DNA from: a virus
Direction: 5' to 3' (one strand)
IMG/VR virus record: IMGVR_UViG_3300046096_000285
Coordinates: 9,795 to 73,794 of that record
DNA: 64,000 nucleotides
Shown: one piece after another, positions 27,922 through 45,733 of the stretch
How the letters are laid out: the number at the start of each line of letters is the position of its first letter
Position numbering within the stretch: the stretch's first letter is position 1
The notes under the pieces: generated by a model
Seen by the model: only the letters and a program-made list of their open reading frames with translations
Databases searched by the model: none
Told to the model about the DNA's origin: nothing
Position numbers and translations under genes: made by a program

Positions 27922-28152
27922 ATGCAGTCAAAGCATGTTAAAGCGGTACCCGACGAGCTGCGCTTCTGTGCGGCATGCGGATACGAGGGCTCGCCAAACG
28001 CTGGCCCGTCCGATGACCTTCGCTTCTACGGGACTGAACTACTTCACCCGATATGCCGCGAAGAGATGGGGTTCCTGCTAACGGAGTTCACCAAGGCGGG
28101 CTCGGTTACTGAGGACGACGCAGCGGACCTATTGCGACGGATCCAGCTCTAA
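27922..28152 (+). CDS. Small zinc-finger protein
   Basis: GAGGTG RBS; CAAC..HPIC. Confidence 0.5.
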   Translation: MQSKHVKAVPDELRFCAACGYEGSPNAGPSDDLRFYGTELLHPICREEMGFLLTEFTKAGSVTEDDAADLLRRIQL

Positions 28153-28221
28153 CTTCCAACGAACGGCATGCGGCGAGCGCCTCTCCAAATCAACATCTCA
28201 GTAACGGGGTAACATAACCTC

Positions 28222-28527
28222 ATGAGAAGTTTAGAGATCCACGTATTCGAGACCGATGCCGATTTGGATAGCGGCGTGCTTGGCGGCCTGCTGACCGTCG
28301 AGGACCTAGATGCCGTAGCATGCACTGCGTGCTTGGACGAAGTCGGACACACTAACGGATCCTTCGTAAGCTACACGACTGTGCTTGATGACGTCGATCA
28401 GTGGTACCTTTGCATTCCATGTACTGGAGCAGTACTCGAGCCATCAGCTGCAGCGATCGATGAACCGATCTATCTTCTTGACGTCGACGACGAGGAATTC
28501 GAAACTTTCGACCTAACGGATGACTAG
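28222..28527 (+). CDS. Acidic zinc-finger protein
   Basis: CTAC..CIPC. Confidence 0.55.
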   Translation: MRSLEIHVFETDADLDSGVLGGLLTVEDLDAVACTACLDEVGHTNGSFVSYTTVLDDVDQWYLCIPCTGAVLEPSAAAIDEPIYLLDVDDEEFETFDLTDD

Positions 28528-28653
28528 CTAGTAGCTCAGCTCCTTCCCAACTTCCAACGAAGCCTGGGACCTGAATGCTGAATTTAGTCCCGTATTCATT
28601 TTTTCAATACACGTATTCATTTTTTCACAAGAGCAAAACACCCGCTGCGTGAT

Positions 28654-28682
28654 TTGACTCGCCGAACCTTTTCTGCTAAGTT
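28654..28682 (+). promoter_or_regulatory. Sigma70-type promoter of first cassette (representative of ~20)
   Basis: TTGACT-17-TAAGTT; equivalent TTGnnn-16/18-TAnnnT follows nearly every 13-mer. Confidence 0.8.
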
Positions 28683-28709
28683 TGACCTAAGCAATGAAAG
28701 GACGGAAAA

Positions 28710-29240
28710 ATGCACGTTGCGCACATACTGCTTGTTCAAGCAGACTCAGCAGAGGACGCCTTTGAGAGGGTCGAAAGCGAACTATCACCAACTGACTATG
28801 GAGTTCGACCAGAGTGGTCAGACTGGCACAATGCCAACAACTCAGCAGAGATGAACTTTGCTGGTCGTTGGACTGGTTCATTCTTCAAGAGCGATAAAGA
28901 GGACGAGCCAAACCCAAACCACCTTTGCTACGCAGATGACAAGGCGCTCGCAGAAAGTGTTATCTCTGACCAGTTAGCCATGCGTGACGCGGAGATTGCC
29001 AACATTAGAAAGAACATGGTTTCAGACCTTTCTACTGTCACAATCAACCACTACGCAGAAAAGTGGAACATGGATTACTGGTATACCCAGAAGTTCCTCA
29101 AGTTGGCAGATAACGAGTGGACTCCAGACTCATACATTTATGACCTAGAAACCAGCACAGCGTCACTTCACTGGTTCATGGAGCGTGTCATGCTCGTGCC
29201 AAAGAAGCAGTTTCTGGTTCCTGTGGACTTCCATTATTAG
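28710..29240 (+). CDS. Hypothetical phage protein
   Basis: GRWTG and LVPVDFHY motifs; AAGGACGG RBS. Confidence 0.7.
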   Translation: MHVAHILLVQADSAEDAFERVESELSPTDYGVRPEWSDWHNANNSAEMNFAGRWTGSFFKSDKEDEPNPNHLCYADDKALAESVISDQLAMRDAEIANIRKNMVSDLSTVTINHYAEKWNMDYWYTQKFLKLADNEWTPDSYIYDLETSTASLHWFMERVMLVPKKQFLVPVDFHY

Positions 29241-29269
29241 AAGTGGAGAAGTGGTGATACACTTTTCTT

Positions 29270-29725
29270 ATGAAATCAATAGACAGATTTACAACTAAAT
29301 ACAAAATCAATCTAGAAACAGGCTGCTGGGACTGGATAGCAGGGACATCGGCTGGGTATGGAGCGTTCGCGTACGAGCGCGGCAAAAAAGCCCATAGATT
29401 CTCGTACGAATACCACAACAACACCATTCTCGGCGAACTGACTATCGACCACTTATGTAGGAATACACTGTGCGTAAATCCAGAACACTTAGAGGCAGTA
29501 CCTAAGGGGGAGAACTCTAGGCGCAGAAATCTCAACCACACCTATAAGAAAAAAGAAGTCTGTAAGAATGGACACTTCATAGGAAAAAATGAATACGTCA
29601 GACCAGATGGCTACTCTGAGTGCCTACTATGTAGGAGTGATAGAGGTAAGGCTTATAGGGAGAAGCATGGAGACGAGCATAGAGCCAAACTTCGTAAGTA
29701 TTACCACGACAAAAAAAATAAATAA
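29270..29725 (+). CDS. HNH endonuclease
   Basis: GCWDW, AHRFSY, DHLCRNTLCVNPEHLEAV..EN, CKNGH. Confidence 0.92.
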   Translation: MKSIDRFTTKYKINLETGCWDWIAGTSAGYGAFAYERGKKAHRFSYEYHNNTILGELTIDHLCRNTLCVNPEHLEAVPKGENSRRRNLNHTYKKKEVCKNGHFIGKNEYVRPDGYSECLLCRSDRGKAYREKHGDEHRAKLRKYYHDKKNK

Positions 29726-29814
29726 AAAACTTTCAAAATAGACTTGACACTTCGAACGAATGGTGTAAAGTTATCAGTAGGTGGAAATCACCACCCAAAA
29801 AGTAAGGACGGAAA

Positions 29815-30285
29815 ATGACAACAATCGTTGAGCCAGTAGTCGAGACAGGTAAGCCAGCAATCGCTGGTGTTGGTATCTATCTCGAACTCGTGCCAAAGGG
29901 CGACAACCCACACAACAAGACCACCCAGATTTTGTTTACCCCACAAGGTATGACAGAAAAGGGTCAGCCAGTAGGACTCGCCATGATTTCTCGTGAGGTC
30001 TCAACTTGGTCGCCACGCAAGCAATGGAGGCACAACTTCTCTCGCTTGACAGCAGAGCAAGAAGCACTCGCACCAGCAGACCAAGCACTCGCACTAATCG
30101 CTCGTTTCGAGACTTCTCTCAAGCGTGAGATTTACTATGGCTACGAACTACGCAACAAGCCAATCGTTTTCGAAGTTACCAACCTAGACCTCGCCGAGGT
30201 TCTGGACTGGAAAGCACCTGCTTCGGCACTACGCCGAATCCAAAAGGCACGAGTATCTCTCGGCTTTCCAGAGAAGTTAGTTTAG
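29815..30285 (+). CDS. Hypothetical protein
   Basis: TTGACA-17-TAAAGT promoter at 29744; GGACGG RBS. Confidence 0.65.
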   Translation: MTTIVEPVVETGKPAIAGVGIYLELVPKGDNPHNKTTQILFTPQGMTEKGQPVGLAMISREVSTWSPRKQWRHNFSRLTAEQEALAPADQALALIARFETSLKREIYYGYELRNKPIVFEVTNLDLAEVLDWKAPASALRRIQKARVSLGFPEKLV

Positions 30286-30308
30286 TCAAGGAATAGGACG
30301 GAAAAATC

Positions 30309-31349
30309 ATGACTACAACCACAGCAACCCCAGCACCAGCAACACGCTCAATGGACACCATTGAGGTAGACGAACTGTTCGCCAATCTGACAGGTATGCT
30401 TTTCAGCGTGGCTGTTCAGGACAAGGACGCAAGTCTCAAGTCTCCAAATCTCGACTCCCTAATGCCACCTGCCGCTCGTGCTAATCTTAGAGCAAAGGCT
30501 GGCACAGGACAGGTAAAGGTAGCGAAGAAGTCAATGGTCAATGTTGAAGCACTAGAGGGTGTCGAGAAGTATCCTCGCCCAAATGGTCAGGATTACTACG
30601 CTCGCCCTTGGGGTGAACACACAGACATCGAGGTTCTCCGCAAGGCTCGAACTGCTGACCAGTTTGTTCTCCTCTATGGTGCGCCCGGAACTGGTAAGAC
30701 TGCCGCTGTTGAAGCAGCGTTCCCAGACGAACTTTACACAGTCTTGGGTTCAGGCGACACCGAAGTTTCTGACCTCGTTGGAGGGTATGTTCAGACTCCA
30801 AGTGGCGGCTTCGAGTGGGTGGACGGTTCTCTCGTTCGCGCCGCCGAAGAGGGTAAGGTTCTTCTCATTGACGAGATTGGTCTCATTGACCCAAAGGTCT
30901 TGTCAATCGTTTATGGTCTCATGGACGGACGCAGGGAATACACCGTCACAGCGAACCCAGAGCGCGGAACTGTCAAGGCGAAAGAGGGCTTCTATGTAAT
31001 CGCCGCGACTAACCCAAATGCCCCAGGAGTTCGCCTATCAGAGGCGTTGCTATCTCGCTTCTCACTCCAAGTTGAAATGACAACTGACTGGGGTCTTGCC
31101 AAGAAGTTGGGCGTTCCAGTAATCGCTGTAACTGCCGCGCAGAACCTTGCGAAGAAGCAGAGCAATGGAGAAGTTTCTTGGTCTCCACAAATGCGTGAGT
31201 TGCTCAACTTCAAGACAGTCTCGACCTTGTTTGGTTCGAAGTTCGCTGTCGAGAACCTCGCAGGTTCAGCACCAGAACTTGACCGTTCTGTTGTGGTAGA
31301 TGTTCTGACCCGAGTGTTCGGCGAAGAAGTCAAGCCAGCCAAGATTTAG
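30309..31349 (+). CDS. MoxR/CbbQ/NorQ-type AAA+ ATPase
   Basis: GAPGTGKT, LLIDEI, IAATNP, LSEALLSRF. Confidence 0.92.
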   Translation: MTTTTATPAPATRSMDTIEVDELFANLTGMLFSVAVQDKDASLKSPNLDSLMPPAARANLRAKAGTGQVKVAKKSMVNVEALEGVEKYPRPNGQDYYARPWGEHTDIEVLRKARTADQFVLLYGAPGTGKTAAVEAAFPDELYTVLGSGDTEVSDLVGGYVQTPSGGFEWVDGSLVRAAEEGKVLLIDEIGLIDPKVLSIVYGLMDGRREYTVTANPERGTVKAKEGFYVIAATNPNAPGVRLSEALLSRFSLQVEMTTDWGLAKKLGVPVIAVTAAQNLAKKQSNGEVSWSPQMRELLNFKTVSTLFGSKFAVENLAGSAPELDRSVVVDVLTRVFGEEVKPAKI

Positions 31350-31470
31350 CAACACCGTCCGTTGCTAATCGGGGAGTGTCAAAAAAGTTTTCGAATGGAC
31401 TTGACACTCCCCACCCACTTATGCTACTTTGTTGGTAGGACGAAACACCAACACGAATAAAGGACGAAAC

Positions 31471-33243
31471 ATGGCACACTTATCTAGACTCTCAACTCGC
31501 ACGAGTTCAACTCCTGTCGAGTGGCTCAAGACCTGTTCACACATTGGCGAAGTTGCTAATGCTTGGGCTGGTCGTGGAGACCTTGCTGTCTACGCTGGCG
31601 AGGACGCTGGCATGGGCGAGGCACTTGCTTGCTTCATTATCGAGACAGCAGAAATCGAAATCAACCTACCAAAGGCTTTTGGCAAGGCGACCACTCCAGA
31701 AATGGTTGGCGACCTACGCTTGCGCGAAGTTCAGTATGACTGGGCAGAGCCAGTTGGCGTTATCTATCACGAGGCACTTCACGCTCGTTACACCACTTGG
31801 AACATGGAGGCACTCAAGGAGAGTCCAAAGGTCGAGATTGACGCTTTCATGTTGCTAGAGGAGTCACGCATTGAAGCACGAGGCGCACGACTAATCCCAA
31901 GTAACAAGTTGTTCTTGCGCTCGTCTGCCCTTGGTCTCTCGATTGGTGACATGGCAGAGGCTGTCAAGGACATGAGCGAGGTCTGGGCGACTGCCAACCT
32001 CGCAGGTCTGGCACTTGCTCGTGTAGACGCTGGCGTTCTCGAAGCGAGTGATGTCACGATTATCGAGGGCAAGGTTCTCGAGATTCTGGGCGAGGACTTG
32101 CTTGGCAAGTTGCGTTCAGTCTGGGTTCGCTTTCAGGCACTAGAGACTTCACAAATGGAACAGGGCAAGGCACTCGCTCAAGAGTGGGTCGAGTTGCTAC
32201 GCGAGGCAGACCCAGAGGGCGAACCTCAAGAGGGTGGCGCAGGTGGCGCAATGTCACAGGCACTCCAAGACTTGATTGACGCGCTTGGCGAGGCTGCTGG
32301 CGATACTGCTGTTCAGGTCTCGATTGACATGGGCGACCAGCAGGATTCAGAGGAACGCAAGGCAGAGGCAGAGGAACGCGCCAAGGAAAGCAAGCGACAG
32401 AACGACAACAAGCAGGAGTCGCGCGAAGTGTTCACTCGCTCGAATGGCTCGACTGGTTCTGGGTCAGATTCACGACTCCAAGAACAGCGCAACCCAACTG
32501 GACACGAACGCGCCGCCGCTGTTCAGATTGCCAAGATGTTGGAAAAGGCAAAGTATCGTGAACGCTCGCTCACCGAAATCAAGAGCCACGCGCCACAGGG
32601 TCGCCTCAAGGCTCGCGTTGCTATTCAGAACGCCGCCGCGAAGTCGCGTGGAGTTCGTGAGACACAGCCAGCGTGGGTCGCCAAGAAGCGCAAGCACACA
32701 GACGACCCGAACCTAAGCATTGGTGTCATGGTGGACATTAGCGGCTCAATGAGTTCGGCAATGGAGGCAATGGCAACTACGGCGTGGGTCATGGGAGAAG
32801 CAGGTCGCCGCGTTCAAGCCAAGACCGCAATGGTCTACTTCGGCTCGGGAGTGTTCTCGACTCTCAAGGTCGGTCAGAAGTTGGACAAGGTTTCGGTCTA
32901 CTCCGCGCCAGACGGAACGGAGAAGTTTGACAAGGCGTTCAAGGCACTAGACGGCGAGTTGAACCTGACCTACGGCGAGGGTGTTCGTATGTTGGTCGTT
33001 GTATCAGACGGACAGTTCACCAGCGTAGAAATGGAAAAGGCTCAAGCCGCGGCTCGCCTTTGTGACCGCAACGGAGTCGCGCTTCTTTGGATTACGCCAG
33101 AGGCTTGCTGGAGTGGCAAGGGTCAAGCCTTGCTCAACGGCACGAGCGGCGTGGTTCTGGACAAGATGAAAACAGACGAGATTGCGCTCGCTATCGGTAA
33201 AGCCGCCGCCGAAGCACTCGGTAAGGTGGGTTCAAAGTTCTAG
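31471..33243 (+). CDS. VWA-domain partner protein with N-terminal HEXXH
   Basis: YHEALH...LEESRIE; MIDAS DISGS, VVSDG. Confidence 0.88.
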   Translation: MAHLSRLSTRTSSTPVEWLKTCSHIGEVANAWAGRGDLAVYAGEDAGMGEALACFIIETAEIEINLPKAFGKATTPEMVGDLRLREVQYDWAEPVGVIYHEALHARYTTWNMEALKESPKVEIDAFMLLEESRIEARGARLIPSNKLFLRSSALGLSIGDMAEAVKDMSEVWATANLAGLALARVDAGVLEASDVTIIEGKVLEILGEDLLGKLRSVWVRFQALETSQMEQGKALAQEWVELLREADPEGEPQEGGAGGAMSQALQDLIDALGEAAGDTAVQVSIDMGDQQDSEERKAEAEERAKESKRQNDNKQESREVFTRSNGSTGSGSDSRLQEQRNPTGHERAAAVQIAKMLEKAKYRERSLTEIKSHAPQGRLKARVAIQNAAAKSRGVRETQPAWVAKKRKHTDDPNLSIGVMVDISGSMSSAMEAMATTAWVMGEAGRRVQAKTAMVYFGSGVFSTLKVGQKLDKVSVYSAPDGTEKFDKAFKALDGELNLTYGEGVRMLVVVSDGQFTSVEMEKAQAAARLCDRNGVALLWITPEACWSGKGQALLNGTSGVVLDKMKTDEIALAIGKAAAEALGKVGSKF

Positions 33244-33476
33244 GATTCCACTAGCGCAACGGTAGGCTTTCGGGTTCGTTCATGCCCGCCTCCTTTCCCT
33301 ATCGGCTACTGGATAGAGACCCTCGACAGATTCGTCCCTGTCGGGGGTTTCGCACTTTCGGCGAGCGCAGGTCGTATTCATTTTTTCATTCTGTCTTTCG
33401 ACTTCTGACGAAAGATGTTTGACACTCGTTTGAAGTATGCTAAGTTTGAACTATTCCTAGAAAGGGGAAAACAGAA

Positions 33477-34403
33477 ATGCCAAATCACGTTTGGAACAGC
33501 ATTGGGGTTTCAGGGGCTATCGCTGACATTGAAGCGTTCGTTGCTAAGGCTGGCAAGCCACACATTACAGAGTTCAAGGGCAAGCGTTATCAGGACGAAA
33601 CTGGCGCTTGGAAGTATGACCCAGAGATTATTGACACCCACGAGGACACAGACCCATTCTCATTCTGGAACTTCATAAAGCCAGACGACGAGATTCTTCC
33701 TGTCTACTTTGGACACGAGAAGTCAGAGAAGCCAGAGGGCTACGAGGGCTGGGACTTCGCGGAGAAGATGGCGCACGACCTCAAGTTCACAGGCAACAAC
33801 GCATACGACTGGAACGTTCGCAACTGGGGAACCAAGTGGGACGCATACGACCAGACCTTCGACGGCGTGACAACTGACGAAGCGATTGGAAAGGCGAGTG
33901 CGACTTACAGTTTCAATACGGCGTGGAGTATCCCAGTTCCAGTATTTGAAGCACTCTGCGAACAGCACCCAGAGTTGAGTTTCTCGTTTGAGTCGGAGGA
34001 GGAACAGGGCTGGGGCGCGACTTACGAGTCAAGCGCGGTAGACGACCCAGAGGACGGCGAGCCTACATCCGCACTACTTCTCATCAGCGAGTGGGACATC
34101 CCTGAGAGCCACGCAGAGTTGGTAGCCCGAGGGCGAGAATGCCACTGCGAGTATGACGACGACGAGGACTCGTGGTATGACGACTGCCCTCGTGAAGAAC
34201 GAGTGTTCACCGTTGTCGTTGAGCAGACTTTCGTGGTCAAGGCGACGGACGCAGAGAAGGCTTGGGAACTTGCCGAGGAACACCTCAACAAGCCGATTGA
34301 GAACTTGCCAGAGGGAGTCGAGCAGTCGGATGAGTATTCGCTGTTCGTCAAGAACCCAGAGACTGGCGAGCGTTTGTATCCGACACTCGGAGGGGGTGAG
34401 TAG
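33477..34403 (+). CDS. DUF1281/YubB-like ferredoxin-fold protein
   Basis: MPNHVWN, YDWNVRNWGTKWD, FNTAWS.P. Confidence 0.8.
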   Translation: MPNHVWNSIGVSGAIADIEAFVAKAGKPHITEFKGKRYQDETGAWKYDPEIIDTHEDTDPFSFWNFIKPDDEILPVYFGHEKSEKPEGYEGWDFAEKMAHDLKFTGNNAYDWNVRNWGTKWDAYDQTFDGVTTDEAIGKASATYSFNTAWSIPVPVFEALCEQHPELSFSFESEEEQGWGATYESSAVDDPEDGEPTSALLLISEWDIPESHAELVARGRECHCEYDDDEDSWYDDCPREERVFTVVVEQTFVVKATDAEKAWELAEEHLNKPIENLPEGVEQSDEYSLFVKNPETGERLYPTLGGGE

Positions 34404-34649
34404 CGTGGCAACACCAAAGACACCGAAGCCGAAGATGGGCAACGGCGCAACGACTCGTCTGACAGACGGACGACGCAAGTAGCAGAGGGAGAGGGCGAAA
34501 GCCCTCTCTTTTCTTTTGCCCCTCGTATTCATTTTTTCGTCATTGCCACGCCGATACACGCCGCGATTTGACACGAGTTTGGAATAGGGTATAGACTACG
34601 AGAGTAGTCAACGAGGAAATGCCTCGACTACACAAAGGAGGGGATTGAA

Positions 34650-35042
34650 ATGGCAACTGCCGAACTTCAATCAGCACAGGTTGCTAAGGCGACCACCAGC
34701 ATTACCAGCACCACAGAGGACAACCTAGTTGTTCTAACCCCTGCGATTCAGAAGCAGGTCAAGGCACTACGCGAGGCTCGCAATGTAGCGAAGCAGGCAA
34801 AGGCTCTAGGGGATACAGCACGAGACGTTATCTTGGAGTTCGTGGGGGAGACCACCACCAACCTCGTGGGCGTGGACGCAAAGGGCAAGCGTTTGATTAG
34901 CCTCAAGTTGATTCCAAGTTCAGAGAGTTTCGACTGGGCACGACTTCAACTTCAGCAGCCTGAGTTGTTCGAGATGCTCAAAAAGGAATACACCATTCCT
35001 CGTGGGGCAGGCGCACCAACTCCACGAGTGGACACGATTTAG
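34650..35042 (+). CDS. Hypothetical protein (similar to 38657..38983)
   Basis: Cassette gene; helix then FD...L....PELF. Confidence 0.6.
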   Translation: MATAELQSAQVAKATTSITSTTEDNLVVLTPAIQKQVKALREARNVAKQAKALGDTARDVILEFVGETTTNLVGVDAKGKRLISLKLIPSSESFDWARLQLQQPELFEMLKKEYTIPRGAGAPTPRVDTI

Positions 35043-35205
35043 TCCACTCACGAAAGTCGCTGGCGAGAGTTCCCCTCTCTCGCTGGCGATTTTTTGTATG
35101 GAGGCTGTATTCATTTTTTCATTAGATCCATAACTTCCAACGAATGGTTTGACTTGGAGATAACAAACTGGTAAAGTGGAAGTAACTCAACCAAAGGGGA
35201 TTCAA

Positions 35206-35658
35206 ATGAGAACCAGAGAATACGACCTCAACGTTTACGTCACAGATGGCGTGGCACGTTTGTCAGCATACGAATACACATATAGCGACAGCGACGACCC
35301 TCAGCCAAATGGCACAGAGATGAGCAAGTTCGTCACGTTGGAAGTTCCAATGGACAAAGCACACCACGACGAAGTGGCGTTTCTACTGAGCGACGAGGAC
35401 TGGCAAGACTCACCAGTGGCAGACTGGCAGGACTACGACAGCCCATGGGAAAACTTGGCGTGGCTAGAGACAGCACCGGCAAGCATAAGAGCGTGGGGAG
35501 ACGCGCTCGCGGAATACGAGCCGACCACTCAACACGAGTGGGAACTCTACACAATGGACTTGAAATACGGCGAACGGCGAGACGTGAAGTGCCTCAACTG
35601 CGACGCGACATACCCTATCTACCGTTTGACATGGGAACAGATGACGGCTAAGGTGTAG
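35206..35658 (+). CDS. Hypothetical protein
   Basis: AAGGGG RBS after cassette promoter. Confidence 0.6.
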   Translation: MRTREYDLNVYVTDGVARLSAYEYTYSDSDDPQPNGTEMSKFVTLEVPMDKAHHDEVAFLLSDEDWQDSPVADWQDYDSPWENLAWLETAPASIRAWGDALAEYEPTTQHEWELYTMDLKYGERRDVKCLNCDATYPIYRLTWEQMTAKV

Positions 35659-35660
35659 GT

Positions 35661-35885
35661 ATGAGAAAAGACATCAAGCAACTACGGATACTCGCAGAGC
35701 AACAAGGCTGGAGAGTAGAGCGCACTAACGGCGACCACTTACGGTGGCTCGCGCCAGAGGGTGGCATGGCTATCTACTCGGCAAGCACACCGTCTAATGC
35801 TCGCGGAATACTCAACCTCAGAGCGCAACTGCGTAAAGCGGGTCTACATTTAGAGAAGCACGGCAAGCAAAAGGTGAACGCATGA
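35661..35885 (+). CDS. HicA-like protein
   Basis: L..QGWRVERT.GDH.RW..P...STPS....N....L...G. Confidence 0.65.
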   Translation: MRKDIKQLRILAEQQGWRVERTNGDHLRWLAPEGGMAIYSASTPSNARGILNLRAQLRKAGLHLEKHGKQKVNA

Positions 35886-36178
35886 AACTGTATCGGCAAG
35901 CACTAGGCGAGGTTCTGCGCGAAGCAAGAACGGTGAGGGGTCAGACCCTGCGACAAGTCTCAACGGCTGCCTCGTGCGCCCTCGGATACCTGTCGGAGTT
36001 GGAGAACGGACACAAGGAAGCGTCCTCGGAGATTTTGGAGGGGCTTGCCCGTGCGCTCAAGGTGACGGTGAGTGAACTCGCTATCCGTGCTGGCTTGCGT
36101 ATAGCGGAGGAGAGTATCCCTGATACCCCTGCCGAACTCTACGAGGAAGCACCGGCCCTCATTCCTCACCGAGGATAG
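35882..36178 (+). CDS. XRE HTH regulator, ClgR-like
   Basis: LGEVLR..R...G.TLR.VS..A...LGYLSELE.G.KEASSE.L. Confidence 0.82.
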   Translation: MKLYRQALGEVLREARTVRGQTLRQVSTAASCALGYLSELENGHKEASSEILEGLARALKVTVSELAIRAGLRIAEESIPDTPAELYEEAPALIPHRG

Positions 36179-36292
36179 CCTCGGGTGGTAACCCCGTATT
36201 CATTTTTTCAACAACCGACACGGCGAGCGCAATACTTGCTTGACGGCTTGCCGTAGGGTATAGTTGGACTATCCAATGAAAGGGGTTGCCAA

Positions 36293-36688
36293 ATGGCAGA
36301 GAACATCACAACGGCGGGGCTAGTAGCCACCACACCAAGATACCTAGTCACGGCAGACGGCTTGCCGATTACTTCATTCCGGCTTGCCACAACTTCAAGA
36401 AAGTTTGACGCGCGAACTGGCGAGTGGGTTGACGGCGAGGCTAACTGGTATACCGTTACCGCCTTCCACGACTTGGCTATCAATGCGGCAAGCAGTATCG
36501 AGAAGGGTCACCGTATTGTCGTTCAAGGCGCGGTTAGAGTGCGCGACTGGGATAACGGCGAGCGAAGCGGAACATCCGTAGAGATTGAAGCCGAGGTCAT
36601 AGGTCACGACTTGAGTTGGGGAACCGCTGTGTTCACCCGAACCGTCTTGACTCGTAGGGTAGAGAAGCCAGAGACCGTGGGGGTATAG
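36293..36688 (+). CDS. ssb: Single-stranded DNA-binding protein (no acidic tail)
   Basis: FRLA...R......EW.DG..NWY.V..F..LA.N...S..KG.R..V.G, IGHDL.WG. Confidence 0.9.
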   Translation: MAENITTAGLVATTPRYLVTADGLPITSFRLATTSRKFDARTGEWVDGEANWYTVTAFHDLAINAASSIEKGHRIVVQGAVRVRDWDNGERSGTSVEIEAEVIGHDLSWGTAVFTRTVLTRRVEKPETVGV

Positions 36689-36864
36689 AGACCTTACCGA
36701 ACAGATAGAGAAAACGCGGGAACTTGCTATCCCGCGTTTTTTCATAGTCGGGGTCGTATTCATTTTTTCAACCGGCACGACACTTCACACTAAGATTTGG
36801 AAGTTGGCACGGAAAGTGGTAAGGTTGAACTATCACCGAAGACAAGGGTGAGAAAAGGGAAGAG

Positions 36865-37038
36865 ATGAACGAGATAAAGATTTGCCCAAAGTGTCAGGGC
36901 TACATCCCAAACAACAAGACACCGGGGGCATACTCAGGCGCGATTTCACGCCGAGACAACAAGACAGAGATTTGTTCGGCTTGCGGAACTCATGAAGCGT
37001 TCGAGGACCTTTTCGCGAAAGAGCGAGTCAATGGCTAA
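36865..37038 (+). CDS. Small zinc-finger protein
   Basis: CPKC...AISRRDNKTEICSAC. Confidence 0.65.
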   Translation: MNEIKICPKCQGYIPNNKTPGAYSGAISRRDNKTEICSACGTHEAFEDLFAKERVNG

Positions 37039-37165
37039 GGCAGAGTGTTACGACTGTGACGCGGAAATTGAAGTCGAAGACTCAACCTATGTCCACCCCT
37101 TGTGCGCTGAGTGTCAGAACGAAGCAGACGACTGGCTACAAACACAGATGTTGCTAATGAACTAA
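37031..37165 (+). CDS. Small zinc-finger protein
   Basis: CYDC...CAEC. Confidence 0.55.
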   Translation: MAKAECYDCDAEIEVEDSTYVHPLCAECQNEADDWLQTQMLLMN

Positions 37166-37339
37166 AAGTCACGCTCACCGAAAGGTGGGCGTTTCTTTTA
37201 CGCCGCATCGCGTATTCATTTTTTCACCAACACAGTGGCGATTACTCACAACAACTCACGAATGATTTGATTTTGTCCTAGCAGGGTGATAAGTTTGATT
37301 TGTTGCCGAAGTTCAGTAAGCAACGAAAGGGGCAACAAA

Positions 37340-37669
37340 ATGGGTAACAGGGCTTGGATTCAGATTTCAGCAGAGCAGTTTGAAACACCTATCAGCCTTT
37401 ATGGTCACTGGTCGGGCGAGGACAACCTCACCGCCGTAGTCAAGACCCTAGAGAGTTCAACACGCATTGGGGATGTGTCATACCTCACAGCACAGATTTT
37501 CTTCCACTTCACGCAACTAGGTGGCTACACAGGCGACACAGGGTTTGGCATTTCGACAGGCGAAGCCCCTAGCGTAGACGATGTGGACACCGTTTATGTG
37601 AACGCTGATAATGGTGAGTATACTTATCAGGGCGTAACTCACCACGAGTTTGCGCTAATGAAGGCTTGA
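37340..37669 (+). CDS. Hypothetical phage protein
   Basis: MGNRA, LY.HW.G, R.GD.SY motifs. Confidence 0.7.
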   Translation: MGNRAWIQISAEQFETPISLYGHWSGEDNLTAVVKTLESSTRIGDVSYLTAQIFFHFTQLGGYTGDTGFGISTGEAPSVDDVDTVYVNADNGEYTYQGVTHHEFALMKA

Positions 37670-37912
37670 GTCGAGGTCGAGTCCACCACTCCCTTGATTC
37701 ATTGGGTTAGGGTTAGCCCCCTTTCCCTAACCCCGAACGCCAGTAGATAATCCCCTTATCTACTGGCGTTCACCATTTCTCAGGGATACGAGGCGTATTC
37801 ATTTTTTCCTCGAGCTCAGACACGACGCAACAACTCACGAATGATTTGACTTGATACGAGTTATGTGTTACTTTTGTATTGCCTTTGAAAAGGCAGAAAG
37901 ATAAGGGGCAAC

Positions 37913-38320
37913 ATGGAAAAGGTATTAGAGATTCGCAAGTTTGAGATTAGCTCAGACTGTTCATGCGAGGTATACGACGAGGACACAGACACGTCTTCAC
38001 CAAGCGACGAGTGTTTCAACTGTTTCGCCGACGACAAGGATAATTTCAAATACGTGATTCTTCAGCCATGGCTTGAGGCTAATGGTTGGGATGAGGACAC
38101 AGTTGTTTATGTGTTCAGCGCGAACATGAACTGGAATCACGTCGCGGGATGGACAAACGTCTACGCGAGAGAGGCTATCGACTGCCTAACTTTGAATGGC
38201 GAGTTTACCCTTAGTTACAAGTTGGATGGCAAGAACTTGACTTGCGTTCGTTCAAGCCACGACGAACATGGCGCGTTGTTCACGTTCAGTGAGGCACAGA
38301 AGGATTATCGCGATGAGTAA
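37913..38320 (+). CDS. Hypothetical protein
   Basis: Cassette gene; SSHDE.G motif. Confidence 0.65.
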   Translation: MEKVLEIRKFEISSDCSCEVYDEDTDTSSPSDECFNCFADDKDNFKYVILQPWLEANGWDEDTVVYVFSANMNWNHVAGWTNVYAREAIDCLTLNGEFTLSYKLDGKNLTCVRSSHDEHGALFTFSEAQKDYRDE

Positions 38321-38477
38321 CCTAGTGTTCACCGGCCCTCGCGCCGTTCTCTCTCAGTTGTCTGCCGATTCGACAGTCATGTTCTCTCAGTTGATAGAGG
38401 ATGACGAGTTGGTCGCGATGGTGTTAGCCAAGAAGCCATACGACACGTTGCTTGAATACGTGAACGAAAACTACTGA
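38313..38477 (+). CDS. Small hypothetical protein
   Basis: Overlaps previous stop, ends before terminator. Confidence 0.55.
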   Translation: MSNLVFTGPRAVLSQLSADSTVMFSQLIEDDELVAMVLAKKPYDTLLEYVNENY

Positions 38478-38656
38478 GTCACGACAGGGAAGCCCCGCGG
38501 AAACGCGGGGTTTCTTTTTGCCCGCGGGAAGTCGCCGTATTCATTTTTTCAGCGAGCCTAGAGCCGACACGCTTAGGATTTGGTGTTTTTTGAAATAGGG
38601 GGTATCATTGACTTATGAAGTCAATAAGGCTTCACTAAATAGAAGGGGGTCGCCAA

Positions 38657-38983
38657 ATGGCTACCAAGATTCAGAAGGCAACCGCGGTTGTCACCGAGGC
38701 TCGCAAGGTCTCAAAGGTTGTTGTTGCTAACGCCGAGCGTCTAGCGTTCGTTCGTGCCGAGGTTATTCGTCTAGAGGCAGAAGCCAAGCTCTTGCGCGAT
38801 GGGCTTATCGCGGTTGCCGATGGCGCAACTACTCTTGTCCACAACAACATCGCCATCGTTGAGATTTCACCACGCTCAACCTCACGCGTAGACTCGAAGG
38901 CGTTGAAGGTTATGTTTCCTGAAGCATACGAGGCAACACTCAAAGTCACCGTATCACCTGTCGTGGATGTTCTGAAGCGATAA
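38657..38983 (+). CDS. Hypothetical protein
   Basis: Cassette gene; RVDSKALK..FPEAY. Confidence 0.65.
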   Translation: MATKIQKATAVVTEARKVSKVVVANAERLAFVRAEVIRLEAEAKLLRDGLIAVADGATTLVHNNIAIVEISPRSTSRVDSKALKVMFPEAYEATLKVTVSPVVDVLKR

Positions 38984-39207
38984 ACGCCACGAGGAAGCCC
39001 CCTAGGATTCTCTAGGGGGTTTTTCCTTACCCTAAACACGCCAAGCCCGCCACGAGGCACACAGCCCCGCCACGAGGGCGTATTCATTTTTTCGTCAAAA
39101 CACGCCAGCTGAGGATTTGATTTGACAAGTGTCCGGCTTATGGATAAGATTTAGTTATAACTAAATAGATGCACCACTCAATGCACCACCAACCTAAGGG
39201 GATTCAA

Positions 39208-39537
39208 ATGGCAACTATGGCACCTGCTACCAACACCACTACCAAGTTCGACCTAGGCGCGACTCTAGACGAGCCGACCACCGCATCAGTCGTCACCGAG
39301 GTCGAGAAGTTCGACAACACTATGGTCTATGCCAAGACTTCACTAGAGATGTTCGTTAGCGCGGATAACGTGGATGACACAGTCTACCTTGACCTTCGCC
39401 AACTCAACTTTGTACGACTGGGCCCAACCGACGAAGAACAGATGCACGTATTCACCACCTTGCTCAACCACCGCTTCACTCGCGAGCAGGCCGAGGCACT
39501 GGTCGCCACGTTCACTCACGAACTCGCGAAACTCTAG
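39208..39537 (+). CDS. Hypothetical protein
   Basis: AAGGGGATTCAAATG start. Confidence 0.6.
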   Translation: MATMAPATNTTTKFDLGATLDEPTTASVVTEVEKFDNTMVYAKTSLEMFVSADNVDDTVYLDLRQLNFVRLGPTDEEQMHVFTTLLNHRFTREQAEALVATFTHELAKL

Positions 39538-39690
39538 CGAGCGCGACAAGCCCCTGTCGAAAGGCAGGGGTTTTGTCATTCCCCGGCTGTATTCATTTTT
39601 TCACAAGAAGACACAGGAGTGGGCTGAGATACTATGTTTTGTCCGAGGGGTTTGATAAAATGGGAGTATCCAAATGAAAGGGGATAAAGA

Positions 39691-40047
39691 ATGACAAACT
39701 ACAGCGACGTGGAAGTTGCTCTTGAGAACGCTAAGGCGATTGCTTGGGACACCTGCCACAAGATTTACGTTCTAATGGATGACGAGCAAGTTGAGAAGAT
39801 GCGCGAGTACGAGTACGACCCTCTAATCACGAGCGACGAGATGGACCCTAGCGAAATGCTGTCCACGATTCAAACTTGGTATGAGGACTCTTGCGGATTG
39901 CGTTTCGTAGAAAGCGTCACCACAAATCACGAAGACCCTAACCTTGGGTTTGAAAGTCTGATTCCACAGGGCGCGGATGACGAAGATGACGACACCGACG
40001 AATCTGAAGACGACTACTTCGATGACGAGGATGACGAAGATGAGTAA
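39691..40047 (+). CDS. Acidic hypothetical protein
   Basis: IAWDTCHKIY...W..SC.LRF motif; D/E tail. Confidence 0.7.
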   Translation: MTNYSDVEVALENAKAIAWDTCHKIYVLMDDEQVEKMREYEYDPLITSDEMDPSEMLSTIQTWYEDSCGLRFVESVTTNHEDPNLGFESLIPQGADDEDDDTDESEDDYFDDEDDEDE

Positions 40048-40240
40048 GTTCGCGTTCAACCTAGTTCTCAAGACTGATTACATCGAAGCAGAGAACATCG
40101 AAGAAGCAGAGAAGTTGCTGAACAAGTACATCGATGGGCTGGCTATGGTTGGTGAGCCTGAGATTACTTGGGACGAAGTTGACTGGCAGACCTTTGAAGG
40201 CGACCTAGTAATCAAAGACTTTAGTTCGCCCCTCAACTGA
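40040..40240 (+). CDS. Small hypothetical protein
   Basis: Coupled; ends before terminator. Confidence 0.55.
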   Translation: MSKFAFNLVLKTDYIEAENIEEAEKLLNKYIDGLAMVGEPEITWDEVDWQTFEGDLVIKDFSSPLN

Positions 40241-40405
40241 GCACGAAGAAGAACGCTCTCGAAAGAGGGCGTTTTTTCTCAGGCCCGTTGTATTCATTTT
40301 TTCAACTGGCGACACGGGGGGTTGGTCGAAAGTTGCGAAGGTTTGTCGAAAGTAGTAAAGTAGTTCTGTTGGCAAAAGCCAGCGTAAAGGGATAAGGGGT
40401 TTGAA

Positions 40406-40630
40406 ATGAAGTTTGTAGTTCGTAGAGCAGTCATTGGAGTTCTAGCAGTTCCAGCAGTAGCCGGTGCGTATGTGTTTGGGTATCTAGGTCTGTTGCTTCT
40501 AGGCGCGGAGGGTGCGCTCAAGATTGAAGAAATCTGGAACAATGGAATGTTGATTGGTGGCGTGTGTGCCGTAATGCTCGTGTTCGCGCCACAGGTAAAC
40601 AAGTTCCTCGACAGGGTTACTGGAGAGTAA
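40406..40630 (+). CDS. Two-TM membrane protein
   Basis: Two hydrophobic helices; cassette gene. Confidence 0.65.
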   Translation: MKFVVRRAVIGVLAVPAVAGAYVFGYLGLLLLGAEGALKIEEIWNNGMLIGGVCAVMLVFAPQVNKFLDRVTGE

Positions 40631-40856
40631 AAGACTTGGCAGGGTTTATCCCCCTATCCCCTGCCCAAGAAAAGAGCGTGACCATTCCGCTCACGGCTAG
40701 GCACTTCCCCCAAGTGTCTAGCCTTTTTCTTTGCTCGGAAGTGTATTCATTTTTTCACCCTGCGACACGCGGATACAGATTGGATTTGCGCTCGCCGAGG
40801 ATTTCCTGTAATGTAGTTCTTGTAGCCAGCAAGGGGTTGGCAGACAAGGGGTTCAA

Positions 40857-41015
40857 ATGCTAAAGACTTCAACAGCCGAGTGCGTAGATTGCGCGGTTGC
40901 TATCACCAGCGACAACACGCAAGACGAGGGTGGAAAGTTTGCTTCACCACAGGGGGAATACGCTATCTGCGACAACTGCGCCAATGCTCGCATTGACGCT
41001 TACCTAGAGAACTAA
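40857..41015 (+). CDS. Small zinc-finger protein
   Basis: CVDC...CDNC; AAGGGG RBS. Confidence 0.6.
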   Translation: MLKTSTAECVDCAVAITSDNTQDEGGKFASPQGEYAICDNCANARIDAYLEN

Positions 41016-41027
41016 GGGGCAGGGAAA

Positions 41028-41252
41028 ATGGCCGACTCAATGAAAGGTTCTGGGATTGACTCCGAGGACTACACCGCTTGGTTCTTTTGCTCACATTGTG
41101 ACGAGGAACTGGAACTTGATGGAAAGTCAGACGACTATGGGATTATTGCGACAGCCGAGTGTCCTAAGTGCCGTTCAACCCTAGAGGTTGAAATGCCTAG
41201 CAAGGAACAGTTGCGCGAGGACTACCTAGCCGACTACGACCCAAACAACTAA
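41028..41252 (+). CDS. Small zinc-ribbon protein
   Basis: CSHC...CPKC. Confidence 0.65.
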   Translation: MADSMKGSGIDSEDYTAWFFCSHCDEELELDGKSDDYGIIATAECPKCRSTLEVEMPSKEQLREDYLADYDPNN

Positions 41253-41497
41253 ATAGACTTACCTAGCGCGGGCAACTTCGCTAGGTGGGAGAGAACCGAG
41301 TAACCCCCTTGCTCGTGCGACTCCGAAAGAGCCAGACACTAATCCCCTTGTGTCTGGTTCTTTTGTTTCTACGGTGCTATTCATTTTTTCAGCAAGACTC
41401 CCCCGGGCGTGTCGATTTGCGCCACCCTGGTTGGGGTGCTACAGTTGATACTGTAGTCAGGAAGCAGATAGCGGAGGGCTACACGCAAGGGGAAGAA

Positions 41498-41833
41498 ATG
41501 TCTTCAATCATTACTGTTCCAGTTCAGTTCCAGGCCGAGGACTTCTGGAGTGAAATCATGGGTTCAGCCTGGGAGACCTGGGACTGGTGGGTGACCCTGG
41601 ACTACAGCCAGGGCGCGTCCTGGGACAAGGTTGGCGAAATCACCGTTACATCCTGGGACGGCGAGACCGAGGGCGAGACCCTAGTCACCAAGACCCTCAC
41701 CATCCAGGACCTGGCTGAGTCTTACGGCAAGTGCCTGGCCGAAGGGTTCCGAATCAACATCCACGACCTGGACGCCGGCCAGGGCGACGTCATCCTTCAG
41801 ATGGCAATGTTCGGAGAAGTCGTCTACGGATAG
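41498..41833 (+). CDS. Hypothetical phage protein
   Basis: DLDA..GD.ILQ.A.FGEVVYG C-terminus; AAGGGG RBS. Confidence 0.7.
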   Translation: MSSIITVPVQFQAEDFWSEIMGSAWETWDWWVTLDYSQGASWDKVGEITVTSWDGETEGETLVTKTLTIQDLAESYGKCLAEGFRINIHDLDAGQGDVILQMAMFGEVVYG

Positions 41834-41870
41834 TTTCACCAGGACGCCCCTCGGCAGAAATGCCGGGGGG

Positions 41871-41921
41871 TTTTCCACAGCCTGTGGAAAGTTATCCACA
41901 GACTTATCCACATGTGGATAA
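41871..41921. promoter_or_regulatory. Cluster of five DnaA boxes
   Basis: TTTTCCACA 41871, TGTGGAAAG 41883, TTATCCACA 41892, TTATCCACA 41904, TGTGGATAA 41913. Confidence 0.85.
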
Positions 41922-42066
41922 CTTTTTTTGGAGAGGTCTATTCATTTTTTCGTCAAACGACACGCACTTACGGAGACGATTTGACAGCTGCCAAAAACCC
42001 GAGTAGGCTTACTAATGTAATCAGGAAGCCAAGGGGGCGGAGGGTTACTGAAGGGGTGGGGTTCCA

Positions 42067-42405
42067 ATGGGACTTCTTATCAGCGTGTATCGGTCGGACT
42101 ACGACAGCAAGGCAAATGTTTTCCACGGAAAGCGTCAGCTAGTTCTCGTGAATGTCGAAGGGCCATTCCAGCCATCAGACAACGCACCAGCTGCCAAGTT
42201 GGTTCAGGGTCACGGTAAGACCGCAATCATCGTGCCAGCGGACGAAGGCTTTGACGGCGTTCAGATGAACGGCGGAACTTACGGCTCAACCAGCGACAGT
42301 CGCTTTCAGCGAGCCGTAGAGGGACTAGTCGGAGTCTCACACTTTGCGGTGGCAATCCACGACCGTCGTGAGTCGTGGGCGGAATACGAGCAGTTCAGCC
42401 AGTAG
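42067..42405 (+). CDS. Hypothetical phage protein
   Basis: M.GG.Y..TSDSRF...IHDR.E motif. Confidence 0.7.
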   Translation: MGLLISVYRSDYDSKANVFHGKRQLVLVNVEGPFQPSDNAPAAKLVQGHGKTAIIVPADEGFDGVQMNGGTYGSTSDSRFQRAVEGLVGVSHFAVAIHDRRESWAEYEQFSQ

Positions 42406-42560
42406 GCAACCAAGCGAAAGGCTCACCCGAAGGGGTGGGCTTTTTTCTTGCTCGTTAGTCTATTCATTTTTTCATCCGGATGCGGGGAAGCTTGCGCGGT
42501 TCGTTGGAAGTTGGTAAAGTTGGAGTATCAACCAGATTGGTTGAAGATAAGGGGCTTCAA

Positions 42561-42908
42561 ATGGAAAAGATTGGTTTGGTAGTGGACTCGGAGTTCACCG
42601 CGTCTGTGACCAGGTTGTCACTCAAGGAACTACAAGCTGCGGTCGATGGTCTGATTCAGCCGATTGACATTCGCGAGGGCTTGACTATGTGGGTAAACGA
42701 GGAGTTCTTGTTTCGCTCAGAACCAGACGCAAACGTTTTGGCTAGTGCGTTCTTCGCTGAGGCTGGTGGAAAGTATGACATCCACGGAACTGTCGTCTTC
42801 ACTGGTGGCACGGATGAGGATGGCAACACTCTCGGGCTGTCAGACGAGCACCGCGAGTTAGTGGAGTCGCTCTGTAAGTTCGGGATTGGCGTTCGCGAAA
42901 TGGCTTAG
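42561..42908 (+). CDS. DUF3846-like protein
   Basis: L.ELQ.AV.G.I....MWVNEE......N..A.....I.G.VVF.G. Confidence 0.75.
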   Translation: MEKIGLVVDSEFTASVTRLSLKELQAAVDGLIQPIDIREGLTMWVNEEFLFRSEPDANVLASAFFAEAGGKYDIHGTVVFTGGTDEDGNTLGLSDEHRELVESLCKFGIGVREMA

Positions 42909-43080
42909 ATTTCAAAAAAGGAAAGTCCGGCTTCGGTCGGGCTTTTTCTTTTTCTCGGGGCTATTCATTTTTTCCTTCAGCTCGCAGACAACACACGGAA
43001 GTTCGTGGGAAGTTGCGTAGGCAGGGCGTTTCGATTAGGCTTAGGTCATAAGCCAAATGGTTTGGCGAAAGGGGATTCAA

Positions 43081-43314
43081 ATGGCAACCAAGAACGCGAA
43101 CGCAGATTTCGTTTTCGAACTCGTTATGAAGATGGCGGGCGGGGCGGACAAGTATTCAATCCACACTCAGGGCGCAATCTGGGCTGAGTGTCAGCGCAAC
43201 TCATCACTACAAACGCTAGCGGGAATGTATCTCGTTGGTTCATCAGCACGCGCAGAGAACAACCTAAAGAAGTTGCGCTCTGCCGTTTACTCAACATTCC
43301 TAGAGAGGAACTAA
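43081..43314 (+). CDS. Hypothetical protein
   Basis: AAGGGGATTCAAATG start. Confidence 0.6.
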   Translation: MATKNANADFVFELVMKMAGGADKYSIHTQGAIWAECQRNSSLQTLAGMYLVGSSARAENNLKKLRSAVYSTFLERN

Positions 43315-43316
43315 TA

Positions 43317-43544
43317 ATGGCAATGTCATACGGAGAGCGTAAAGCGCAAGCAATCGCTAGGCGTAATGCGGAACTACTCACGCGAGATTCTATGTTGGAG
43401 ATTCGCAGTATTCTAAGTCCAATGCCCTACGCGCCTAAGTCGGTGCTAGAGGGCGTGCCGTTCGTAATAGAGAACTTGACCCCAATGGAATTAGATGTGG
43501 AGTTCGTGGGCGACACAATCACAATCAAAGAAGCGGTGCGCTAA
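43317..43544 (+). CDS. Hypothetical protein
   Basis: GAGG RBS, coupled. Confidence 0.55.
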   Translation: MAMSYGERKAQAIARRNAELLTRDSMLEIRSILSPMPYAPKSVLEGVPFVIENLTPMELDVEFVGDTITIKEAVR

Positions 43545-44325
43545 TGCGGGCGTGGCACTTGCTCAAGTATCGAACTTGGCGCGTGGTCGGTTCGCTGGCG
43601 TTCGGTCTGTATCACCGCTCTGCTCAATGGTCTCACGAAGCGTTCGTGCGGGCTGGCAAGTCTGGTGCGGACAATGACTAGGGGCGAGAGTCTGGCTGTT
43701 CTTTTACGCTCGGTGGCTGGCGGTCTGGGATTTGTCTGGCTGTTTGGTTTTGCCGTTGGCTGGCAAGACCCTGTATCGCCGTTCGTTGTTTCCACACTTG
43801 CCGTTGGATTCTTGTGGGGTGCGTGGCGCGTGGGTCGTTAGTGACCCCGCGTTCGCGCTTGCGTGCGGACTATTCATTTTTTCCCTAATCCCCCTGCGGG
43901 CACACGGATGATTTGACTTTCATTTGCGGAGTAGGGTAGGCTAGTCGTAGACCAGCCAAGGGGGCTGGGGAGAGGGGCATCATGATTCACATCTTCTGTG
44001 CGGACTGCGACGGCTGGGACTCGTTCCCATCTGGCGGGTCACACAACTGCGAGACCGTCGAGTTCGTTACCAACCCATCCGCTGGGTTCATCGGTGGCGA
44101 CTGCTGGTTCGGGGACGACTCGGACTACTAGGCGAAAGCCTAGCCAACCCCTCACCTTCGGGTGGGGGGTTTCTTTCTGTTCGTGAGAAGTTGTCTGTGC
44201 GGGAGTGCTATTCATTTTTTCCCTAGGCGACACGCTTGCGGGGGGTATGATTTGACTTTGCCGGAGGATGTGTTAGGCTAGTCCTAGGACAAGCCAAAGG
44301 GGCTTGCCAGAAAAGGGGATTCAAA

Positions 44326-45564: not shown

Positions 45565-45733
45565 CTCTACTCGGGAACCCCTGCTTCGGCGGGGGTTTTC
45601 GCATGTGCGGGGGAGCTATTCATTTTTTCCTGCTCTGCAACGAGTGCGGGCGTGATTTGACAAGTTTCGAATAGCTGATAGGATTTAGTCATAACTAAAT
45701 AGCTCCAATTAACCGACAACCAAAGGGGACAAC

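Follow-up and report, generated by a model that had tools for sequence, protein, structure and literature searches.

Hairpin loops complementary to the ribosome-binding sites of their own messages in an AAA_5 ATPase/vWA gene module of a freshwater actinophage

Several early genes in a 64,000-nucleotide stretch of phage DNA (positions 9,795 to 73,794 of IMG/VR record IMGVR_UViG_3300046096_000285; hereafter, the window) are followed by hairpins whose loops read as antisense to ribosome-binding sites (RBSs), which raises the question of whether the 3' end of such a message folds back on the RBS from which the message is translated. The window is part of a 73.8-kb contig from an uncultured freshwater phage (a lake actinophage), and the features described below are on its plus strand unless noted otherwise. 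An earlier note on this DNA had proposed that the loops of six cassettes are antisense to the RBS of their own cassette and co-vary with it, and the loops and RBSs that it listed were all found in the sequence at the coordinates given. Our results showed that the proposal holds for two of the six, namely the operon of a gene designated X and an AAA_5 ATPase gene (the X-AAA operon) and the vWA gene that follows it, for which comparison of related sequences lends strong support to pairing between the 3' loop and the message's own RBS. It failed for the four remaining cassettes, which have C-rich loops that proved to be generic.

The AAA_5 (MoxR/CobS-like) ATPase gene (346 aa, 30309..31349; PF07728, 1.4e-23) is preceded by the RBS tag GGACGGAAA at 30296..30304, and its stop codon lies in the 5' arm of a hairpin (31346..31368; 8 bp, dG -8.7, z -3.6) whose loop, ACCGTCC (31354-31360), is antisense to the GGACGG of this RBS, with a duplex energy of -12.0 kcal/mol. 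Exact matches to the same tag serve as the RBS of gene X (156 aa, 29815-30285; tag at 29806..29814) and of the gene at 28710-29240, whose tag at 28700..28708 is the first copy. By exact-copy count, GGACGGAAA occurs four times in 64 kb, where 0.29 copies are expected, and three of the four are RBSs of the AAA block, making it a private tag of this block. When loops were scored against 35 translation initiation regions (TIRs) of the window, ACCGTCC found no match outside its own block, where it fitted the three RBSs with GGACGG (28700, 29806 and 30296).

The second case is the HExxH/vWA (CobT-like) gene (590 aa, 31471..33243), which has HEALH at residue 100 and DISGS, the MIDAS motif, at residue 422; its product had no Pfam match, and its homologue in phage DSL-LC01 is annotated as a cobalamin biosynthesis protein. 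The RBS of this gene is AGGACGAAAC (31461..31470), and its message ends in a terminal hairpin (33316..33351; 14 bp, dG -25.3, z -5.1) with the loop ATTCGTCC (33330-33337), antisense to GGACGAA (-10.8 kcal/mol). Among the 35 TIRs, the best match of this loop was the vWA RBS itself. When the full vWA message was folded at minimum free energy (MFE), its RBS came out unpaired, as did the loops of both 3' hairpins (the other is a first hairpin, described below). Duplexes of loops with the own RBS ranged from -9 to -18 kcal/mol, and 8 of 11 pairs beat at least 98% of loop shuffles. The own RBS was the best match only for the AAA and vWA loops, and co-variation within the window therefore rests on two cassettes.

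Relatives of the window allowed the complementarity to be followed across lineages. Among named relatives, the Actinomycetia phage DSL-LC01 is the closest (its AAA protein shares 73% amino-acid identity), followed by large phages of Microbacterium and Gordonia; an 8-kb megablast query found nothing among GenBank phages. A search with the vWA protein returned 76 IMG/VR loci (40-61% identity) with an AAA gene just upstream, 69 of which, together with the window and DSL-LC01, made up 71 usable loci (given below by L number) that were grouped into 27 sequence clusters. Because long 5' and 3' segments gave noisy RNAduplex results (-23.8 for own pairs vs -21.2±0.7, p=1.5e-4), we used the longest exact complement as the statistic, for vWA between the gene's own TIR (-25..-1) and the 130 nt past its stop codon. 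In most loci the post-vWA hairpin shows the complement of the vWA RBS of its own phage, and the sequences vary between lineages, with pair types that include GGACGAA, AAAGGACAA, CTTTTAGAAAGGG, TGACGGAAGGAC, CAAAGGACAAACA, GGAGAAGA, TGGAAGGA, AACGAAAGGA and CAAAGGGG. In DSL-LC01, for example, TTGTCCTTT in the post-vWA loop is set against the phage's own RBS, AAAGGACAA. The longest complement of own pairs averaged 8.26 over the 27 clusters vs 6.33±0.26 for shuffled pairs (p<5e-5), and the complementary 3' segment was 90% unpaired in the MFE fold vs 44% for the whole 3' region. In a sister-pair test on non-overlapping pairs of nearest relatives, which controls for relatedness, own partners beat swapped partners 13:3 (p=0.011).

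The AAA gene behaved in the same way. The complement of its RBS starts 1-8 nt past the AAA stop in most loci, own pairings averaged 6.67 vs 4.98±0.22 for shuffled ones by longest exact complement (p<5e-5), and own partners beat swapped ones 12:3 between sister pairs (p=0.018). More than 20 types of RBS/anti-RBS pair were found. L002 (AGGACGAA/TTCGTCCT) and L010 (AGGACTAA/TTAGTCCT) differ by a single compensatory double substitution, with flanks otherwise identical. Gene X, of about 150 aa, often bears the same odd tag upstream of AAA, giving a three-way agreement in the window, L008, L042 and L065, and in L023, L044, L046 and L069 the matching RBS is that of X. Elements of this type extend to cultured phages: in the Microbacterium phage Pumpernickel, the post-AAA hairpin matches the leader of the gene upstream of AAA over 11 nt, and the same match covers 8 nt in Cece and 7 nt in A3Wally, with a common CAACGAC leader motif. 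In the Gordonia phage Mareelih, the genes are laid out differently and no clear element was seen. The covariation in related phages that the earlier note had named as a check was found for X-AAA and vWA, in both cases against shuffled pairs, and not for the C-rich loops, which are not cassette-specific. Separately, a conserved word, TTAGGTTTTCG or near variants of it, follows the anti-RBS 10-25 nt past the AAA stop (e.g., L022, L041, L044, L066 and L076).

Some lineages have rearranged the two partners. In L004-6, the AAA and vWA genes are fused into one unit (8-nt gap), the post-AAA element is absent, and it is the RBS of AAA that the loop behind vWA matches, over 14 nt; L065 has a match of the same kind over 11 nt. 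These are informative exceptions among the loci in which the vWA TIR is not the best in-locus match. In the lineage of L021/22/32/38/44/45/52, the partner of the 3' loop is the loop of a leader hairpin at -33..-26, forming a kissing-loop variant in which a compensatory indel is seen (TTCGGAAG/CTTCCGAA vs TTGGAAG/CTTCCAA). In L013-like and L025-like loci, two neighbouring segments pair in the correct antiparallel order. As a side observation, the L013-L070 group has, 25-50 nt past the vWA stop, a GTCCTTCCA core closed by a 3-bp inner stem that covaries (GCG/CGC vs GTG/CAC in L032 and L052), and this loop core is kept even where the lineage's Shine-Dalgarno (SD) sequence no longer matches it.

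The covariation between the two partners shows that the 3' loop is constrained to stay complementary to the RBS (or to the leader loop), and the simplest cause is RNA-RNA pairing. The two sites are complementary, the complement is displayed in a loop, and they co-evolve. Several observations weigh against this reading. Each phage's own TIR was strictly the best of about 15 in-locus TIRs in just 13 of 27 clusters for vWA, and for AAA the AAA or X TIR was strictly best in 9 of 26 loci, with 8 ties. Post-AAA matches are absent in L001, L025 and L028, and L069 has no post-vWA match; several lineages retain the conserved GTCCTTCCA loop without a match to the SD itself. The window's own complements are short (6-7 bp), and in phages such as DSL-LC01 the RBS is common to most early genes. 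The loop-RBS contact is a pseudoknot, which the folding tools used can neither score nor represent. On the side of the C-rich loops, these are not kept in one of the three gene families checked.

The feature is also narrow in scope. For 289 other genes of 26 relatives and the window genome, there was no excess of complementarity between a gene's own RBS and its 3' flank (4.75 vs 4.83), indicating that the feature is confined to the X-AAA and vWA messages and does not extend to early genes generally. This null result rules out a model in which every early gene masks its own RBS. Accordingly, the fold-back of 3' loops on their own RBS that the earlier note had put forward is retained for the X-AAA operon and vWA, on the evidence of cross-phage covariation, and dropped as a general property of early cassettes.

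The reading that we favor, with moderate confidence, is that the AAA and vWA messages (class I) pair their 3' end with the RBS within one mRNA, in the manner of icaR, most likely as a brake on translation, and that the C-rich loops (class II) are generic anti-SD loops. The X-AAA operon and the vWA gene each use a private RBS, and each message ends in a hairpin with an open complementary loop. The two sites would pair as RNA, most simply intramolecularly after the 3' end has been transcribed, with the pairing covering the SD and spacer or, in some lineages, the leader hairpin loop just upstream of the SD. Its likely effect would be to lower translation initiation, and probably also stability, of the finished message, while nascent RNA, and RNA whose stop-codon hairpin is being melted by a ribosome, would stay open. 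From the anti-RBS always standing at the end of the tag-bearing unit, and following that end upon fusion, pairing within one molecule is the most likely arrangement. We infer a common transcript for both sites, a repressive effect and its timing. The earlier note's idea of a self-timed pulse, in which only nascent mRNA is translated, can reasonably be inferred as well. Tight control of the dose or ratio of the AAA_5 ATPase and the vWA protein is a plausible purpose.

A brake on finished messages is likely by analogy with two sets of findings. In Staphylococcus aureus, a UCCCCUG motif in icaR mRNA's 3' untranslated region (3'-UTR) pairs with the SD of the same mRNA, blocking formation of the initiation complex and creating a substrate for RNase III (Ruiz de los Mozos et al. 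2013, PMC3868564). The defining likeness, a C-rich or anti-SD motif in the 3'-UTR complementary to the SD region of the same mRNA, is found here in the window and in the set of 71 loci. Unlike icaR, the genes here belong to double-stranded DNA phages and have private, non-consensus RBS tags, in some cases one tag for two cistrons; the AAA anti-RBS is found 1-8 nt past the stop, inside the stop-codon hairpin, and the support comes from phylogenetic covariation. In Bacillus subtilis reporters, pairing of the RBS with pyrimidine-rich 8-mers that resemble the anti-SD (aSD) and stand hundreds of nucleotides away inhibits initiation and promotes decay, and genes normally show a depletion of such distal sequences downstream of the RBS (Gill et al. 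2025 preprint, PMC12697547). Unlike those genes, in which aSD-like sequences are selected against, the phage module has positively conserved sequences that co-evolve with the RBS. Natural long-range RBS interactions documented in bacterial mRNAs number only a handful (icaR and hbs), and the mechanism is not without precedent, as icaR (PMC3868564), hbs (PMC5737220) and the screen of aSD-like sequences at a distance (PMC12697547) represent the same kind of interaction in bacteria.

Phages offer related arrangements, in the form of RBS masking by the same transcript, 3' control of an upstream gene and long-range gating. The c4 antisense repressor RNA of phages P1 and P7 is processed from the 5' part of the same transcript whose downstream RBSs it masks, the lambda sib element controls an upstream gene from its 3' side through RNase III and 3' decay (retroregulation), and long-distance pairing gates translation in MS2, which has an RNA genome. 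In the hok (fbi/tac fold-back) and aapA1 type I toxin mRNAs, a 5'-3' fold-back keeps the full-length message translationally inert. Such systems consist of a gene for a small toxic peptide and a cis antisense RNA, with 3' processing as the activating step, and the genes here, for a 346-aa AAA_5 ATPase and a 590-aa HExxH/vWA protein, are not of this type.

Since the AAA element lies inside the stop-codon hairpin, we suggest that terminating ribosomes open it, a proposal drawn from its position. An extension of this idea, which we regard as unlikely, is a ribosome-operated gate, in which the 3' end closes the RBS and each terminating ribosome melts the hairpin or duplex and so licenses one new initiation. 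If such a gate were true, it would be a bacterial "closed loop" setting both the ribosome load and the ratio in which X, AAA and vWA are made, and the private RBS tags would be addresses that keep the loops gene-specific.

The C-rich loops of class II follow four cassettes. Gene 34650 is followed by a terminator (35052..35094) with the anti-SD loop TTCCCCT (35070-35076), and the other three cassettes each end in two hairpins: after gene 37340 (37704..37771), with loops TTAGCCCCCTTT (37713-37724) and TCCCC (37751-37755); after gene 40406 (40635..40723), with loops TTTATCCCCCTATC (40645-40658) and CCCCC (40707-40711); and after genes 40857/41028 (41298..41365), with loops CCCCC (41304-41308) and TAATCCCCTT (41340-41349). 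For these seven loops, the own RBS ranked only 5th to 31st among the 35 TIRs, and the best matches (8-10 nt) were the RBSs of other cassettes. For example, TAATCCCCTT matches the AAGGGGATT of cassettes 35206, 39208, 43081 and 44326 over 9-10 nt and its own RBS over 6-8 nt. In relatives, the homologues of 37340 (L078, L080, L082 and L084) each retain two loops with C5-C8 runs and the homologue of 34650 (L090) has the loop ACCCCCC, and the C-runs are retained even where the RBS is GAAAGGAAA, without a G-run (L084 and L090). The lone homologue found for 40406 (L095) has an ordinary terminator and has not kept the C-rich loops, and a homologue search for gene 41028 found none. Class II is, then, a real and partly conserved loop style, complementary to the consensus RBS AAGGGG(ATT) and not aimed at its own cassette.

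That the C-rich loops are nothing else than one style of terminator loop in this phage group, unconnected with RBSs, is possible, if on balance unlikely. It would explain the want of cassette specificity, the C-runs of relatives beside RBSs that lack G-runs (L084 and L090) and the one homologue with an ordinary terminator. Against it, all seven loops stand in four neighbouring cassettes, and no other strong hairpin of the 64 kb has a CCCC loop. The earlier note had described the other terminators as ordinary, and 14 of them do use stable tetraloops (GAAA, TTCG, GAAG, CTCG, ATTC and ATAG); the exceptions are two larger loops unrelated to the RBS, ACTTGCTA (36722-36729) and a DnaA-box loop (41901-41912). 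Furthermore, shuffling the bases on either side of the C-runs lowered their fit to the RBS repertoire (summed best match 60 vs 51.2±2.7, P=0.002), which points to tuning to RBS flanks, and the 37340 and 34650 homologues keep C-run loops despite diverged stems.

If class II is functional, its targets would be many RBSs, reached in trans or through read-through transcripts, like those of the small RNAs (sRNAs) with C-rich loops. The 6C sRNA of Actinobacteria and the UCCC-loop sRNAs of Firmicutes pair through the C-rich loops of two hairpins with G-rich sites and need no chaperone (Mai et al. 2019, PMC6486639). The paired C-rich-loop hairpins at 37704-37771, 40635-40723 and 41298-41365 bear a resemblance to 6C, and this is a resemblance only: the C-rich loops here, unlike 6C, are 3' UTRs or terminators of protein genes, and an Rfam cmscan of 28000-46500 (E<=5) gave 8 weak hits, none of them 6C (RF01066) or otherwise relevant. 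By this analogy, a trans or network role of the C-rich loops (PMC6486639) is possible but weakly supported. A wider version, to which we give little weight, holds that the 3' hairpins persist as released or stable 3'-end pieces and, working in trans as sRNAs, shut off every message with a matching tag, the parent message included, the C-rich loops doing so for all AAGGGG RBSs. One loop may match two or three RBSs with the same tag, the tag is common to many early genes in DSL-LC01 and L028, the C-rich loops fit the RBSs of other cassettes better than their own and have flanks tuned to the RBS repertoire, and actinobacterial sRNAs with C-rich loops pair with their targets without chaperones (PMC6486639). 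However, the anti-RBS of class I always ends the tag-bearing transcript and moves with that end upon operon fusion, and intramolecular pairing is kinetically favoured.

The same 5'-3' pairing might instead protect the message from 5'-dependent RNases (of the RNase J/E/Y type), raising expression or coupling stability to translation, an explanation that we consider improbable to a similar degree. It draws on hbs mRNA of B. subtilis, in which a 14-bp duplex of the 5'-UTR with the 3'-UTR modulates RNase Y cleavage in the leader and leaves the SD unmasked (Braun, Durand and Condon 2017, PMC5737220). The likeness lies in long-range pairing of leader and 3'-UTR within one bacterial mRNA; with its SD left unmasked, hbs resembles only the leader-loop (kissing) variant of some relatives, in which, for one large lineage, the 5' partner is the leader hairpin loop and not the SD. 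In the window, moreover, an extra copy of AGGACGAAAC (31437..31446) lies at or near the predicted 5' end of the vWA mRNA, or in the loop of a weak leader hairpin (31431-31452). In most lineages, however, the complement spans the SD and spacer up to -1, which would block 30S binding, and the systematic screen found distal aSD-like sequences to be repressive (PMC12697547).

A feature of the DNA or of coding, in the form of inverted repeats that are bound by protein or used in recombination, or of an antisense gene whose RBS is the reverse complement, is highly improbable: an RBS and its complement are an inverted repeat by definition, and a 116-aa antisense open reading frame (ORF) in the window starts 12 nt from the antisense GGACGG, but the repeats are of 6-14 nt with one arm always a functional RBS and the other always in a hairpin loop of the sense-strand RNA, and antisense ORFs there range from 0 to 309 aa and are absent or shorter than 12 aa in many relatives. 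With no antisense ORF conserved among relatives, the antisense-gene explanation was rejected.

Other elements of the two messages can be placed beside the paired sites. A promoter-like site, TTGACA-16-TAAAGT (29744..29771), precedes gene X and was assigned by consensus match only. Between AAA and vWA, an inverted repeat, GGGGAGTGTCAA...TTGACACTCCCC (31371..31412), contains the -35 box of the vWA promoter in its 3' arm and is either a terminator overlapping the promoter or an operator; the AAA-vWA spacers of L013, L015, L021, L022, L041, L042 and L044 have an equivalent repeat, GGGTGTC...GACACCC. The vWA message has a first 3' hairpin (33260..33305) that carries CCTCCTTTCC (33289-33298), an anti-SD resembling the 16S tail, unpaired in a large loop; as a partner of the vWA RBS, this loop was discarded, its duplex being no better than shuffles. 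AGGACGAAAC occurs in three exact copies in the window, the third (33592-33601) in the loop of a hairpin inside the coding region of the next gene (33581..33610), 255 nt past the ATTCGTCC loop. As the 10-mer exceeds the 7 nt needed for pairing with ATTCGTCC, another partner, either a protein or an RNA, may recognise this third copy.

The messages are embedded in an array of about 21 plus-strand units across 28.6-45.7 kb, each ordered as hairpin, invariant TATTCATTTTTTC, promoter-like GATTTGAC...TAnnnT, short leader, RBS and ORF, with an RBS that is mostly AAAGGGG and frequently AAGGGGATTCAA. These units, small ORFs flanked by a stem-loop and an early promoter, liken the region to the PeSL early-gene cassette arrays of T4-type phages. 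The 13-mer TATTCATTTTTTC has 22 exact plus-strand copies (28593-45629), one upstream of each cassette promoter. An extra exact copy on the minus strand (29583-29595), within the 29270-29725 ORF, adjoins a 117-aa minus-strand ORF (29188-29541) and suggests one inverted unit. The leader hairpins of four cassettes (40825-40841, 43952-43968, 44290-44306 and 44633-44651) display a second copy of their own RBS motif (e.g., CAAGGGGTT twice and TTCAAAGGGG twice), laid out as the AGGACGAAAC pair of the vWA leader; such doubled motifs could be decoys, standby sites or kissing sites. The hairpin made of DnaA-box consensus words (41886-41927; TTATCCACA at 41892 and 41904, TGTGGATAA at 41913) is preceded by a terminator and followed by the next 13-mer. 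A very basic peptide is encoded by a 25-codon ORF (34405-34482) that starts 2 nt past the stop of gene 33477-34403 and has the strongest SD of the region (GGAGGGGGTGAG), and a four-tRNA cluster (Asn, Gly, Thr and Trp) is found at 7912-8535.

Consensus scans of the window for promoters and terminators gave no enrichment above shuffles; the simple terminator scan found 20 sites vs 17.2±4.8 in shuffles and, among the anti-RBS and C-rich-loop hairpins, picked up only 40695-40723. A U-tract is missing from the hairpins at 31346-31368, 33316-33351 and 37735-37771. Parts of the window are present in one metatranscriptome and in 23 DNA runs from metagenomes of freshwater, aquatic and groundwater origin. 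These runs are represented by contigs only (short ones in the RNA run), which carry no information on ends or strand and are neutral on transcription; within them, no variant of the RBS tags and loops was found.

Altogether, our results indicate that a phage gene module has long kept anti-SD-like sequences, though such sequences are potent and usually selected against. Its more than 20 naturally compensated RBS/anti-RBS versions, together with the operon fusion and the kissing-loop variant, form a comparative resource from which the rules of long-range RBS masking could be worked out, and the cultured relatives DSL-LC01, Pumpernickel and Cece make the pairing testable. Compact expression units that limit themselves could also be designed on this layout. 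For the phages themselves, the finding means that 3' UTRs or "terminators" can hold gene-specific regulatory information, and it suggests that they depend critically on the dose of the MoxR-type ATPase/vWA pair.

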